A DNA stretch of 64,000 bases from a virus. Its lineage: Duplodnaviria > Caudoviricetes. Below are positions 2,729 to 7,351 of the stretch, piece after piece. The notes under the pieces were generated by a model. The model was not told the DNA's origin, ran no database searches, and worked only from the letters and a program-made list of their open reading frames with translations. The stretch is taken from positions 6,926-70,925 of the IMG/VR virus record IMGVR_UViG_3300025654_000007, one strand, 5' to 3'. A program made the translations under genes and the position numbers. Position 1 is the stretch's first letter. Every line of letters begins with the position of its first letter.

Positions 2729-3436
2729 ATGGCTTTGCCAACAATGACAAGTTCCAAATATAAGGTAACTATACCTTCTACTGGAGAAACAGTGGACTAT
2801 AGACCTTATTTAGTAAAAGAAGAAAAGATCCTAATGATTGCTTTAGAGTCTCAAGATCAAAAGCAAATACTTACAGCAATACAGAACGTTATAGGTGAAT
2901 GTATAGACCAGGATATTGACGTTGATAGTTTAGCAATGTTTGATATTGAGGCGTTGTTCTTAGCTCTTCGATCTAAATCGGTAGGCGAACGTATAGAACT
3001 AATGGCAGCCTGCTCGAAATGTGAAAACAAAACAGAAATTGAAGTATTACTTGATGATGTTAAATGTGCTGAGTTTGATAAAGGCAGTAGAGTTATTGAA
3101 CTATCAAGCGATGTTGGTGTCACTATGAACTTTCCATCTCCTGTCGTTATGAATTCTTTTAAAGAAGGAGAATTAGAATCAATTGAAGGCGTACTCAAAC
3201 TAATCGCGCTAAGTATTGAATCTATTTACGATGAATCTAATGTATATCCAGCAGGTGATGAAACTGAAAAGTCACTAAGCGCATTTATTGAAAGCTTAAA
3301 CAATAGTCAACTAACCAAGATTACTGATTTCTTTGAAGACATGCCATCGTTAGAACATACAGTAGAGTTTAAGTGTTCGGCATGCGATACTGATAACACA
3401 CTAGAATTAAAAGGCCTACAAGCTTTTTTTACATAA
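2729..3436 (+). CDS. gp26: Baseplate hub subunit / tail assembly chaperone
   Basis: YRPYLVKEEKILMIALES, LRSKSVGE, CSKC/CSAC zinc motifs, ends LKGLQAFFT. Confidence 0.9.
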   Translation: MALPTMTSSKYKVTIPSTGETVDYRPYLVKEEKILMIALESQDQKQILTAIQNVIGECIDQDIDVDSLAMFDIEALFLALRSKSVGERIELMAACSKCENKTEIEVLLDDVKCAEFDKGSRVIELSSDVGVTMNFPSPVVMNSFKEGELESIEGVLKLIALSIESIYDESNVYPAGDETEKSLSAFIESLNNSQLTKITDFFEDMPSLEHTVEFKCSACDTDNTLELKGLQAFFT

Positions 3437-3621
3437 GCCTCTCTCATGACTCGCTAATAAATCATTATCAGACTAATTTTGCGTTAATGCAACATCATAG
3501 TTATTCATTAACTGAATTAGATCATATGGTTCCATGGGAAAGGGAAATATACATTGCTATGTTACAAGAACACATCAGAGAAGAGAACGAACGCATTAAA
3601 AAAGAGAATAATAAAACGTGA
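3424..3621 (+). CDS. gp51: gp51-like hub assembly ORF (missing from ORF track); probably expressed as a -1 frameshift extension of gp26
   Basis: Open -1 frame FFYISLSHDSLINHYQTNFALMQHHSYSLTELDHMVPWEREIYIAMLQEHIREENERIKKENNKT*; MQHH-YSL-E-M-PWER-IY is typical of the short gp51-like proteins of marine T4-like phages; first ATG (3487) has no SD. Confidence 0.85.
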   Translation, partial: FFYISLSHDSLINHYQTNFALMQHHSYSLTELDHMVPWEREIYIAMLQEHIREENERIKKENNKT

Positions 3622-3920
3622 ATGATGAAAACTGGACAAAGAAGGTACAAGTAGAGGTTGAAGTTGGTGCTATCGAAAAGCTACCAAATAGATTCTCTAA
3701 AATTATCGATTTAGCAGAAGCCTTCGATTCGTGGCGTGTCTTTCCGCGTTTATTCATATGCTTCTACCTAGTTTTACTATATAATACTACAAATTGGTTT
3801 ATAGCATTAGAAGACCCCACGATGCCGCAGGCTGGTTTAATATCAACCGTCATAGGCGCGGGAGCAGCCTGGTTTGGACTGTATGTTAATACAGGTTCAA
3901 GTAACAACAAAGGGAAGTAA
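3618..3920 (+). CDS. Small two-TM membrane protein (holin-like or ejection-associated)
   Basis: Hydrophobic segments VFPRLFICFYLVLLY and AGLISTVIGAGAAWFGLYV; basic C-terminus; GTG start. Confidence 0.75.
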   Translation: MNDENWTKKVQVEVEVGAIEKLPNRFSKIIDLAEAFDSWRVFPRLFICFYLVLLYNTTNWFIALEDPTMPQAGLISTVIGAGAAWFGLYVNTGSSNNKGK

Positions 3921-3926
3921 TAATAG

Positions 3927-5612
3927 ATGGATGACGATAACAAACCAAATCAGAAAATTTCAGATAATTTAGCTAGGCTTACTGAGCAGATGGCTCAAGC
4001 CAATGCGCTAAACGAAACAACAGAATTATCAAGTCAACTAAACAATACATTAGAGAACAAACAGTTAAACCTTTCTAGCGGACAGACTGAAGTATTACAA
4101 GATTTAGTCGAAACACTTACTGGTAATACGTTATCAGAACTAGAAGATCGACAAGAAGCTAATAAGATCGCGAAAGAAACTCTTGATAAACTAACAGGTA
4201 TTGAAAATAACACAAAAGCAAAAAAAGATGTTGCACCAATTGAGTTTGCTGGTGGACTAATAGCTAGCCTTATTACATTACCTGCGATATTAAGTGCTGG
4301 ATTATTACTTGGTATATCTGATGCGACTAAGTCTTATGCTAAGTTTCTCAAAAAAGTACCATTAGTTAAATACCCAGTCATAGGAATAGAAAAATCAATT
4401 AAGTTCTTAGGCAAACTTTCCAATAGTGTTTTAGATGACATTAAGAAATTAGGTTCTGCTCTTAAAGGTCTATTTAAGGGTGGACCAATTGGTCGATTTA
4501 TAATGTCATCTAAGCAAGTGTTTGCTATCTTTAGTGCCCAAGCGAAAGGTCTTCTTTCATTTAGGAACTTAGCCACAGGACAACTAAGAAGCTTCGACAA
4601 GACTCTTAAATCGGCTAAAGGTCTATCTAAGGTAGCAATTGGAATGGCCATAACAATGGGCAAGATAGCTAATTCGGTTAGAGCTATGAACAGTGGCACA
4701 TTTACGCCAATATTAGAGTCGGTAAAAGCGGTTAAAAGCGCGTTTGGTGCTGTCGAAATCCCAAAATTTGGAAATCTTGGAAAGATAATTGAACCTATAA
4801 CTAAAACTGTAAAAGGAATTTTTAAAGTTTTTGGCAGTATTAATAAAGCATTCTTTGCTATAGGTAGAGTTTTTGGTAGATTATTTGCACCTTTAGCTGT
4901 AATCTTAGCTGTAGTAGATACTGTAAAGGGTGCTATTGCTGGATTCACTAGTCAAGAAGGTGGCTTTGTTAAGAAATTGGTAAGTGGCTTTGTTGGTGGA
5001 ATTACTGGTCTCTTTAAAGGCTTTATTGCTCTTCCCTTAGACCTATTGAAAAACATAATAAGTTGGGTAGCTGGTAAACTAGGATTTGAGAATTTTGCAA
5101 AAGTACTTGATGGTTTTAGCTTTGCTGCTCTATTCGACAAGCTCGGCGGAGCTTATAATGATGCTCTTCAGTTTATTATCGATACTGTTGTTGACTTCGT
5201 TAAGGGAATACCCGAAACCCTTAAATCTGGACTAGATGTAATGGGTTCTAAATTAAAATCTATAGGTGAAAGCATAGGAACCTTTGTTACTAAACTCGCA
5301 TCCGCGGGAGCCGCGGCGCTAAGAGCCATTGCTCCTGGTGGATTAAGCCCATTGGAAGCATTTAGTCAAGCTATGGCTACCGATAAAGTTCCATCTGGAG
5401 TTGAAGCCAAGGACTTGACTACTGGTTCTGAGATATCCGACGCATCTGCCGATAACGAGATGAATAAGTCACAATTGATGAAAGATGTAAGCTCACCAAT
5501 TACCGTTGTTAACAATCAAGGCGATGTTAACCAAAAATCTACAACAACAATAGGCGCTTCTCGTAGACAGCGTCGTGGTTTTAATAATGATACAGGTTTG
5601 GCTCATAACTAA
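3927..5612 (+). CDS. Tail tape measure protein (gp29-like)
   Basis: Long helical, amphipathic Ala/Gly/Lys-rich protein between the chaperone genes and gp48. Confidence 0.8.
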   Translation: MDDDNKPNQKISDNLARLTEQMAQANALNETTELSSQLNNTLENKQLNLSSGQTEVLQDLVETLTGNTLSELEDRQEANKIAKETLDKLTGIENNTKAKKDVAPIEFAGGLIASLITLPAILSAGLLLGISDATKSYAKFLKKVPLVKYPVIGIEKSIKFLGKLSNSVLDDIKKLGSALKGLFKGGPIGRFIMSSKQVFAIFSAQAKGLLSFRNLATGQLRSFDKTLKSAKGLSKVAIGMAITMGKIANSVRAMNSGTFTPILESVKAVKSAFGAVEIPKFGNLGKIIEPITKTVKGIFKVFGSINKAFFAIGRVFGRLFAPLAVILAVVDTVKGAIAGFTSQEGGFVKKLVSGFVGGITGLFKGFIALPLDLLKNIISWVAGKLGFENFAKVLDGFSFAALFDKLGGAYNDALQFIIDTVVDFVKGIPETLKSGLDVMGSKLKSIGESIGTFVTKLASAGAAALRAIAPGGLSPLEAFSQAMATDKVPSGVEAKDLTTGSEISDASADNEMNKSQLMKDVSSPITVVNNQGDVNQKSTTTIGASRRQRRGFNNDTGLAHN

Positions 5613-5672: not shown

Positions 5673-6560
5673 ATGTCGGTGTATCATTTTCCATTAGACC
5701 TTCGAGCAAGCTTAGAGTCTGCATCCCAACAAGGTGCAGGCTATCCTTGTGTTCAGTTCGTAACAATACCTGATGCTAAATCTACCGAGCTTCCAATAAA
5801 TATCTGGATGTACACTCCTCCTGGCTTTGCACTCGGTGATGTAGTTAACTATGATACTGTTGACTTCGGGCTTCAAGGCGGCGCTCAGTTAGACGTTTTT
5901 GGAGGAGCTGGCTTAACGCTTGATGGTACTGCTGATATGAAACAAGCGGCTGCCCAGGTTGCATCTAGTATGGTCGGAACTATTGGTAAGCAAGGAGAAA
6001 TAACAAAGTTTCAAAATAAAGCAACAAATCCCTTCAGAGCTACTTCGTTTAATTCATCTGGTATTCGAACATTTGGATTCACGTTCAAATTCATATCGCA
6101 ATCTGCTGAAGAAGCAGTAATGGCCCGTAAGATCGAAAACGCGTTTAGAAAGTTCATGATGCCTGATGGTCAGTTAGATTCTGCCACTGTTATATATCCA
6201 CCAGTATGGGAAATCAGATTCATGGACGGTGAAAGTGTTAATCCATTTATGCCAAAACTAATACAATCGTACTGTACTGGCTTAACTGCGTCATATAACG
6301 CGACTAATAGTTCCTATCATGCTGATGGATCTCCGGTAGAAATAGATCTAACAGTTAACTTTCAAGAAGTTAGAGCAACGATTAGAAGTGATTTATACGA
6401 TGCTGACAGTTTAGAAGCTACTCCACTACAAAGACCATCAGGTATAGCTGGAATTAAGAGTGCAGTGAGTAGTAAAGTATCTTCAATTCAAAGCGGAGTA
6501 GCATCTAAGGTATCGTCAGCTGCTTCAAAAACTTCATCGATTATTAAGGGTATACGATAA
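5673..6560 (+). CDS. gp48: Baseplate tail-tube cap
   Basis: NPF...F.SSGIRTFGFTFKF, YPPVWEIRF, CTGLTASY, PVEIDLTVNFQE motifs. Confidence 0.85.
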   Translation: MSVYHFPLDLRASLESASQQGAGYPCVQFVTIPDAKSTELPINIWMYTPPGFALGDVVNYDTVDFGLQGGAQLDVFGGAGLTLDGTADMKQAAAQVASSMVGTIGKQGEITKFQNKATNPFRATSFNSSGIRTFGFTFKFISQSAEEAVMARKIENAFRKFMMPDGQLDSATVIYPPVWEIRFMDGESVNPFMPKLIQSYCTGLTASYNATNSSYHADGSPVEIDLTVNFQEVRATIRSDLYDADSLEATPLQRPSGIAGIKSAVSSKVSSIQSGVASKVSSAASKTSSIIKGIR

Positions 6561-7351
6561 TGGCTGGTTTCTTCAGTATGTTTCCAAAGGTTTCATATAA
6601 CTTTAAACCCTTAGGTATAAATCAGAACGTAGTAGATATATTTAGATCTGCTCGTAACCAAGGTAACTTTATCGATAACCCATCTGCTTATGGTAAATAT
6701 AACATAAGTAATGGCGATAGACCTGACATAGTTTCACAGAAACTGTATGGTACAAGCGATCACTATTGGACATTCTTTCTTATTAATGATTTTCTAAACG
6801 AAGGTCATACAGCATGGCCAATGAGTCAAGAATCCCTTAATGAATACATTGCTAAATATTTCAATGGCACTACGGTTGAAACTAGACCTCTGCTAATACT
6901 TGACACTGATGGCTTAGTAACTGAATATCGAAACTCTCTGTCTGGTCGGTTTCAATTAAACGAAATAGTAACAGGTACTCTTAGTGGAGCAACAGGTAAA
7001 GTCAAATCAAAGAACGCAGACTTATCTCAATTGACTATTAGCGATGTTAATGGTACATTCCAAGAAAACGAAAGCATTCTTGGTTCTGTTAGTGGTGATA
7101 TAGTAACAGCGTTTAAAGTTTATCCAGAAGATATATCTCCAACATATTGGTATAAAACAGGTGATGCAAATCGAAGGCCAGTTACTCCAGATACTATAAT
7201 TCCCGATGGTGTTGCTCGTCATTTGTGTTCATATGTTAGTACCCACGAACAGATTGTAGAAACTAATGACGAACGGTCTGCTATTCGAGTAATAGATCCA
7301 GCATATATTGGTGATTTTATAAAACAATTTAAGGACATAATTAATGTCTAA
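6560..7351 (+). CDS. gp53: Baseplate wedge subunit with LysM-like motif
   Basis: YNISNGDRPDIVSQKLYGTSDHYWTFFLIN; ends with NDERSAIRVIDP. Confidence 0.9.
   Translation: MAGFFSMFPKVSYNFKPLGINQNVVDIFRSARNQGNFIDNPSAYGKYNISNGDRPDIVSQKLYGTSDHYWTFFLINDFLNEGHTAWPMSQESLNEYIAKYFNGTTVETRPLLILDTDGLVTEYRNSLSGRFQLNEIVTGTLSGATGKVKSKNADLSQLTISDVNGTFQENESILGSVSGDIVTAFKVYPEDISPTYWYKTGDANRRPVTPDTIIPDGVARHLCSYVSTHEQIVETNDERSAIRVIDPAYIGDFIKQFKDIINV

Follow-up and report, generated by a model that had tools for sequence, protein, structure and literature searches.

A probable programmed −1 frameshift joins gene 26 to a gp51-like module in a T4-like phage

Gene 26 of an uncultured marine T4-like phage (Duplodnaviria; Caudoviricetes) was analysed in a 64,000-nucleotide (nt) stretch of DNA, positions 6,926 to 70,925 of the IMG/VR record IMGVR_UViG_3300025654_000007, hereafter referred to as the window. 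Comparison of this gene with its relatives indicates that it is probably recoded in the manner of lambda G/GT, a −1 slip by the ribosome giving rise to two proteins. Most ribosomes would translate positions 2729–3436 to produce a gp26 of 235 amino acids (aa), and a minority, with tRNA-Phe in both the P and A sites, would slip by −1 on the sequence U_UUU_UUU (3424–3430) and read the −1 frame to position 3621, producing a 297-aa protein made of gp26 and a 63-residue helical tail. This tail would be the C-terminal module of T4 gp51, and the short and long proteins would correspond to T4 gp26 and gp51, with the heptamer setting the ratio between them, so that neither a second promoter nor a second start site would be needed. 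The slippage would take place on the ribosome, at some frequency. Full-text literature searches returned no report of a gp26–gp51 frameshift.

The features of the proposed recoding site are as follows.

2729–3436, + strand: gp26 homologue, the short product of 235 aa, a baseplate hub / tail assembly chaperone by its matches to PF12322 and phrog_150
3409–3411, + strand: TAA closing the −1 frame just 5′ of the slip site, read from the sequence
3411–3414, + strand: Shine-Dalgarno (SD)-like AAGG, 9 nt 5′ of the heptamer, a possible but unproven dnaX-type stimulator
3424–3430, + strand: slippery heptamer T_TTT_TTT in X_XXY_YYZ phase, the proposed −1 slip site, read from the sequence
3430–3621, + strand: −1 extension of 63 codons plus stop, a predicted gp51 C-terminal module by its match to phrog_634 and its alignment with T4 gp51
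3434–3436, + strand: zero-frame stop of gp26, one codon past the heptamer, read from the sequence
3487–3489, + strand: earliest ATG in the −1 frame, at which a gene caller would be expected to start a 44-aa open reading frame (ORF)

The gp26 gene ends with GCT (3422–24), TTT (3425–27), TTT (3428–30), ACA and TAA (3434–36), which places the T run in the phase that the initial annotation had assigned to it, and the AAGG that it had placed 9 nt upstream is present as well. This is the only run of seven or more T on the + strand of the window. From the slip site the −1 frame reads FFYISLSHDSLINHYQTNFALMQHH... and terminates at TGA 3619–3621. The initial annotation had given the open part of this frame as 3424–3621; its end is correct, but the frame is already open from 3412. 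Between the TAA at 3409–3411 and the heptamer it contains no ATG, GTG or TTG, and the first of these is ATG 3487, 20 codons beyond the heptamer. Joining 2729–3430 to the −1 frame predicts a long product of 234 + 63 = 297 aa, in agreement with the sizes of 235 and about 297 aa proposed earlier. As had also been noted, ATG 3487 lacks an SD: no SD-like 4-mer lies in the 17 nt upstream of it (−20 to −4), and such a 4-mer is present for 37 of the 54 + strand ORFs of at least 100 aa. ATG 3487 is probably not an initiation site.

The −1 ORF matches phrog_634, annotated as “baseplate hub assembly catalyst” (gp51), at 7e-27, and it also matches the last 50 positions of phrog_150, the profile of the gp26 family itself. 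Both matches begin at the Phe-Phe of the slip site. An AlphaFold2 (AF2) model of the −1 module contains three helices (predicted local distance difference test, pLDDT, 78). A tblastn search found the module in 525 GenBank phage records, where the matches overlap the end of the gp26 gene.

The architecture predicted for the long product is that of T4 gp51. In T4, genes 26 (208 aa) and 51 (249 aa) are divergently transcribed, which bears out the earlier remark that T4 does not arrange them in this way. Residues 1–201 of T4 gp51 form a complete PF12322 domain (E 4e-52), followed by a tail of about 48 residues, and residues 200–246 align with the −1 ORF of the window from the slip-site Phe onward (BLASTP, E 3e-6). 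Because T4 gp51 consists of PF12322 plus a tail that aligns with the −1 ORF, the predicted 297-aa fusion would have the same construction. T4 gp26 terminates at the same Phe-Phe position, phrog_150 is matched by both T4 proteins and phrog_634 additionally by gp51. Since gp51 is a gp26-like domain with a tail and gp26 ends at Phe-Phe, T4 gp26 and gp51 are, by sequence comparison, paralogous short and long forms. The T4 pair and the gene in the window therefore share the family PF12322, a protein built like the predicted fusion and a short form ending at or near Phe-Phe, and differ in that T4 has two divergent paralogous genes without a canonical heptamer, whereas one gene is proposed to serve for both here.

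The number of PF12322 genes per genome, determined by six-frame search of complete genomes, is two in T4 and JSE and one in Mosig, Melnitz-1, S-T4, Vibrio D479, phiM9, vB_VmeM-32, AsFcp_1 and P-HM1. Both gp26 and gp51 are tabulated as hub assembly chaperones in T4 (Leiman et al. 2010, PMC3004832, Table 2). The gp51 of cyanophages and marine vibriophages was described as missing its first ~200 aa, and Aeh1 as apparently without gp51, with no explanation offered (Sullivan et al. 2010, PMC3037559). In an unrooted tree of PF12322 domains, which does not tell whether one gene or two is the ancestral arrangement, the N-terminal domains of gp51 separate with support of 100/100 and the frameshift-type genes with 99/99. 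The ends of T4-type gp26 proteins (T4 gene 26, L014:2803-3429; L106, L109, L111) read F-F-E-L-L, F-L-K-I-L, F-V-E-V-L and F-F-K-V-M, and resemble the start of the gp51 tail (F-K-L-L-V), not the zero-frame ends of frameshift-type gp26. This resemblance hints that T4 gp26 was derived by truncation of a long form.

Conservation of the slip site was examined in junctions from 13 GenBank phages, vB_VmeM-32, AsFcp_1 and 80 IMG/VR contigs whose gp26 is 45–100% identical to that of the window, giving 70 distinct junctions that span Kyanoviridae, Schizotequatrovirus, Emmerichvirinae, Angelvirus and Sinorhizobium phages. The GenBank Kyanoviridae were Mosig (pelagiphage), Melnitz (Methylophilales), S-T4, ACG-2014i/e, P-TIM40, Bellamy, P-HM1 and S-CRM01, and the GenBank set also includes Schizotequatrovirus vibriophages and the Sinorhizobium phages phiM9 and phiM7. 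All 70 contain an in-phase T_TTT_TT(T/C/G) with the gp51 module next in the −1 frame, so that the in-phase U-rich heptamer that the initial annotation expected to be conserved is kept in every homologous junction examined. The zero-frame stop follows the heptamer by 0 to 8 codons across all junctions, and by one codon in 80/80 of the IMG/VR relatives.

The heptamer is T7 in 57 junctions, T6C in 12 and T6G in one, with variation confined to the Z position. The codon before Phe-Phe is AGT, AAT, GAT, TCT or GCT; it encodes A, D, S or N, and its wobble base is T in 70/70. Likewise, the first Phe codon of the heptamer is TTT in all 70, against a background elsewhere in the gp26 ORFs of 71% TTT among Phe codons and 75–81% T-ending codons in two-fold families. 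The conservation of the slip site in these relatives thus appears stronger than the protein sequence alone would demand.

In T4, JSE, IME08, Acinetobacter fHyAci03 and Aeromonas 25, phages that carry a full-length gp51 of its own, gp26 lacks the canonical heptamer, even in those that retain Phe-Phe or Phe-Leu. Their gp26 genes end with GAG TTC TTT (T4 and IME08), AGT TTC CTT (JSE) and GAA TTT GTT (fHyAci03), and that of Aeromonas 25 has no Phe-Phe; in all five phages the −1 frame enters gene 25. A T4-like IMG/VR relative (L103) has GAG TTT TTT at the end of gp26, which is not a canonical X_XXY_YYZ site because its first base is G. In AsFcp_1 (Angelvirus, Aeh1-like; L110:1984-2200) and vB_VmeM-32 (L108), gp26 ends with GAT TTT TTC or GAT TTT TTT and a divergent gp51-like module lies in the −1 frame. 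Single-protein queries with the gp26 of T4 and of Vibrio D479 returned few loci.

The same two proteins would arise if RNA polymerase, rather than the ribosome, slipped on the T7 run and added one U to a fraction of the transcripts. The singularity of the 3424–3430 run on the + strand of the window, the presence of eight T in some clade members (FFF variants) and the fact that polymerase slippage needs no downstream structure, none having been found, are all in keeping with this explanation. Sequence alone cannot separate the two, because the Phe-Phe codons fix both the phase and the length of the run. Runs of only six bases are short for efficient slippage by bacterial polymerases, yet T6C and T6G occur in 12/70 and 1/70 junctions, and the variable base is exactly the Z position that a ribosomal −1 slip leaves free. 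The precedent for tail chaperone pairs, lambda G/GT, is reportedly a ribosomal frameshift. We consider slippage by the polymerase unlikely and favour the ribosome as the site of recoding.

Independent evidence for translation of the −1 frame from the heptamer onward comes from its coding constraint. Entropy was calculated at each position for 54 distinct sequences of the window clade. The variable sites lie at zero-frame wobble positions up to the heptamer and at −1-frame wobble positions at offsets +15 to +60 from it, where codon positions 1 and 2 of the −1 frame are near zero and position 3 reaches 0.4–1.8 bits. The wobble switches to the −1 frame at the heptamer, 5′ of the first ATG. Residues 3–20 of the −1 frame are conserved, though the first ATG lies at codon 20–21 in 52/54 sequences. 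The amino-acid conservation upstream of the first Met that the initial annotation had looked for is hence found, with −1 periodicity beginning at the heptamer. In every one of the 54 clade members a stop closes the −1 frame 0–11 codons 5′ of the heptamer, and no start codon lies between the two.

A conserved start of gp51 was also sought, and none was found: the starts in databases are inconsistent, or the ORF is uncalled. A HMMER search of 1.8 billion representative proteins yielded 968 clusters. Among the top 150 of these, almost all are 45–100 aa long, and their called starts lie at query positions 1, 4–7, 12–17 or 20–21. In the 77–83 aa versions, the 15 residues 5′ of Phe-Phe are unconserved and conservation runs from Phe-Phe onward. 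In many relatives (P0121-P0266), the Lys-Cys codons of the gp26 zinc ribbon, when read in the −1 frame, give an ATG-TGG some 15 codons 5′ of the heptamer, and “proteins” of 77–83 aa starting with MW and unconserved residues appear because gene callers use this ATG-TGG. The −1 ORF is uncalled in several GenBank records, and slippage is annotated in none. Two metagenome contigs from ENA (174 and 192 kb) carry in-frame gp26–gp51 fusions, P0126 (99 aa) and P0162 (192 aa), for example ...EGATEFFRISMAHEDL.... As each is a singleton on one contig, these may be sequencing errors; whether natural variants or homopolymer errors, they were given no weight.

If no recoding took place, the gp51 module would be a free small protein, here of 44 aa and started at ATG 3487 and in other phages begun at other starts, and the T run would be no more than Phe-Phe in an AT-rich genome. 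Most database records are annotated in this manner, T-ending codons are favoured (71–81%), and in some distant relatives a TAATG or TGATG at the gp26 stop would permit termination-reinitiation. Such a protein would leave residues 3–20, which lie 5′ of ATG 3487 and evolve as −1 codons, without an available start codon in any of the 54 clade members. At the position of the 3487 Met, which no SD-like sequence precedes, S-T4, P-HM1 and Vibrio D479 have Ile or Val. The wobble T and TTT are kept in 70/70 junctions and not in phages with a separate gp51. T4 gp51, moreover, exemplifies the module working as the C-terminus of a gp26-like domain. We regard the absence of recoding as slightly less probable than polymerase slippage.

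Least probable of the alternatives is that both routes operate, the fusion being the main long form and the module also being made alone by coupling in some lineages, with the window clade using the frameshift only; the heptamer and a TAATG/TGATG overlap do occur together in phiM9, phiM7, S-CRM01 and Vibrio TCU-VP04 and the window clade has no overlapping ATG, but in those phages too conservation begins at Phe-Phe, 5′ of that ATG. Judged by its sequence, the window clade cannot make the module alone by this means.

Several points weigh against a ribosomal frameshift at gene 26 or limit the reading given here. In the four phages just named, an ATG overlaps the gp26 stop in the −1 frame, so translational coupling could produce the module alone there. 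The Phe-Phe residues are themselves conserved, so the T run is partly due to protein constraint. The record that contains the window is 70.9 kb long, which makes it about 39% complete, and holds one PF12322 gene; because of this incompleteness a second PF12322 gene may be present elsewhere in the phage. Support from the fold of gp26, described below, is moderate because Z scores of 7–8 can reflect a mere common arrangement. The 561-aa protein downstream of the pair is a candidate tape measure, with a match to T4 gp29 (BLASTP, E 0.38) that is not significant.

To these must be added the RNA structure results. Folding of the region in the window and in four relatives brought out no shared structure, the window itself scoring about the same as its shuffles (z −0.07 to −0.34), and RNAalifold found no consensus structure among 26 diverse junctions. 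Two candidate structures were rejected: a hairpin CCCTCT...AGAGGG present in certain cyanophages reaches 33% pairing over the alignment, the same as in shuffles, and a stem enclosing the heptamer (AGAGGNC / GNCCTCT) is 68% paired compared with 67% in shuffles, with no covariation.

The CCCTCT...AGAGGG hairpin is GC-rich and lies about 6 nt past the heptamer in some cyanophages with T_TTT_TTC (P-HM1, L013:1201-1225; L004, L007, L096, L097). Its z score in P-HM1 is −2.7, and the window clade, which has T_TTT_TTT, lacks it. There may be a trade-off between heptamer and stimulator. At the place of AAGG, SD-like 4-mers (AGG/GAGG-like) are found in 66/70 junctions, formed by conserved (K/R/E)-G codons, and because these codons form the SD-like tract, selection on RNA and on protein is inseparable at this position.

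The −1 frameshift in E. coli dnaX uses A_AAA_AAG, an upstream SD and a downstream hairpin. The proposed site resembles it in that the ribosome would slip by −1 on a homopolymeric heptamer, preceded at ~9–10 nt by an SD-like stretch of purines. It differs in that the shift truncates the protein in dnaX and would extend it here, and in that there is no conserved downstream hairpin and the SD-like tract is confounded with conserved codons. No dnaX-type stem-loop was found 5–9 nt downstream of the heptamer in the window.

The zero-frame product is a clear member of the T4 gp26 family, matching PF12322 T4_baseplate (E 5e-58, 196.7 bits against a cut-off of 24.5) and phrog_150 (9e-63), and its ATG is preceded by a Shine-Dalgarno AGGAG. 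Four cysteines (C95, C98, C216 and C219) are invariant across 21 homologues, T4-type ones included, consistent with a split CxxC...CxxC zinc ribbon. A profile of the 21 gp26 sequences matched no solved structure by sequence, and an NCBIfam search gave 0 matches. An AF2 model of gp26 (pLDDT 87.5; predicted template-modelling score, pTM, 0.80) was compared with solved structures. Among 48,161 solved chains, residues 1–94 best matched 3fgx_B (Z 8.2), then the HK97 tail assembly chaperone 2ob9_B (Z 7.0 over 84 residues, root-mean-square deviation 4.1) and 3klu_A (YqbN; Z 6.8), with unrelated rows after these at Z ≤5.1. A Foldseek search of the PDB returned no match at E ≤0.001, and its only hit of probability >0.1 was 2ob9_A (0.60). 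With moderate confidence, the model assigns the N-terminal domain of gp26 to the gpG-like tail assembly chaperone fold.

The closest known system is lambda gpG/gpGT, with the −1 frameshift that is reported to be conserved in the tail assembly chaperone genes of long-tailed phages. The pair in the window agrees with lambda G/GT in its overlapping frames, in an in-phase X_XXY_YYZ heptamer a few codons 5′ of the short-form stop, in a long form containing the whole N-terminal part of the short form, in a second frame without its own start and possibly in its position, near a tail tube-like gene and a long candidate tape measure. It differs from lambda G/GT in showing no sequence similarity to gpG/gpT and in the length of its short form, which at 235 aa is roughly double and includes an extra alpha/beta domain and the four-Cys zinc ribbon. 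In addition, the pair is separated from the candidate tape measure by a 100-aa ORF, its heptamer is rich in U where lambda has G_GGA_AAG, and in T4 such proteins are known as factors of baseplate hub assembly. By analogy with the lambda pair, the part shared by the short and long forms may bind the tape-measure/hub protein, and the extra tail may recruit another tail component.

A frameshift at this site, if real, would mean that gene 51 has to be re-annotated in hundreds of sequenced T4-like phages from marine and fresh waters. It would account for the apparent gp51 stub of marine T4-like phages and the apparent absence of gp51 from Aeh1, both on record since 2010, and would add the ecologically dominant phages of Prochlorococcus, Synechococcus, SAR11 and OM43 to the users of programmed frameshifting. 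It also offers a functional model for T4 gp26/gp51 as a short/long chaperone pair whose fold and logic would be related to lambda G/GT.

There is about an even chance that the one-gene frameshift is the general state in the T4 superfamily (cyanophages, pelagiphages, KVP40-like, Aeh1-like and rhizobiophages) and that T4, with its separate genes 26 and 51, has a hard-wired form of the same arrangement. Were this the case, gp26/gp51 would be the missing tail assembly chaperones of T4-like phages, with the shared part holding the gp29-type tape measure/hub protein and the gp51 tail recruiting the next tail component. Long-tailed phages would then all share the G/GT mechanism, and the decades-old question of gp51 function would become testable.

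The genes surrounding the pair are as follows.

2064–2708: tube-like gene, directly upstream of gp26, matching phrog_3629 and phrog_45
3618–3920, + strand: 100-aa ORF with hydrophobic segments, matching phrog_10198 (unknown function) at 9e-23
3927–5612, + strand: 561-aa protein, candidate tape measure (gp29 analogue) by position and size only
5673–6560: gp48-like tail tube cap, after 3927–5612

No promoter-like or terminator-like site was seen between the two frames of the pair. The GTG start of the 3618–3920 ORF overlaps the stop of the −1 ORF (GTGA). This small ORF, which separates the gp51 module from the candidate tape measure, has two hydrophobic segments and no similarity to T4 gp28, and a small ORF like it occupies the equivalent place in Mosig, Melnitz, phiM9 and phiM7. 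The sole phrog match of the 3927–5612 protein is phrog_27688, of unknown function. Some JGI records label gp26-family proteins “ribosomal protein L44E”, a label that probably stems from the CxxC...CxxC motif, and one GenBank record names gp26 “tape measure protein assembly chaperone”.

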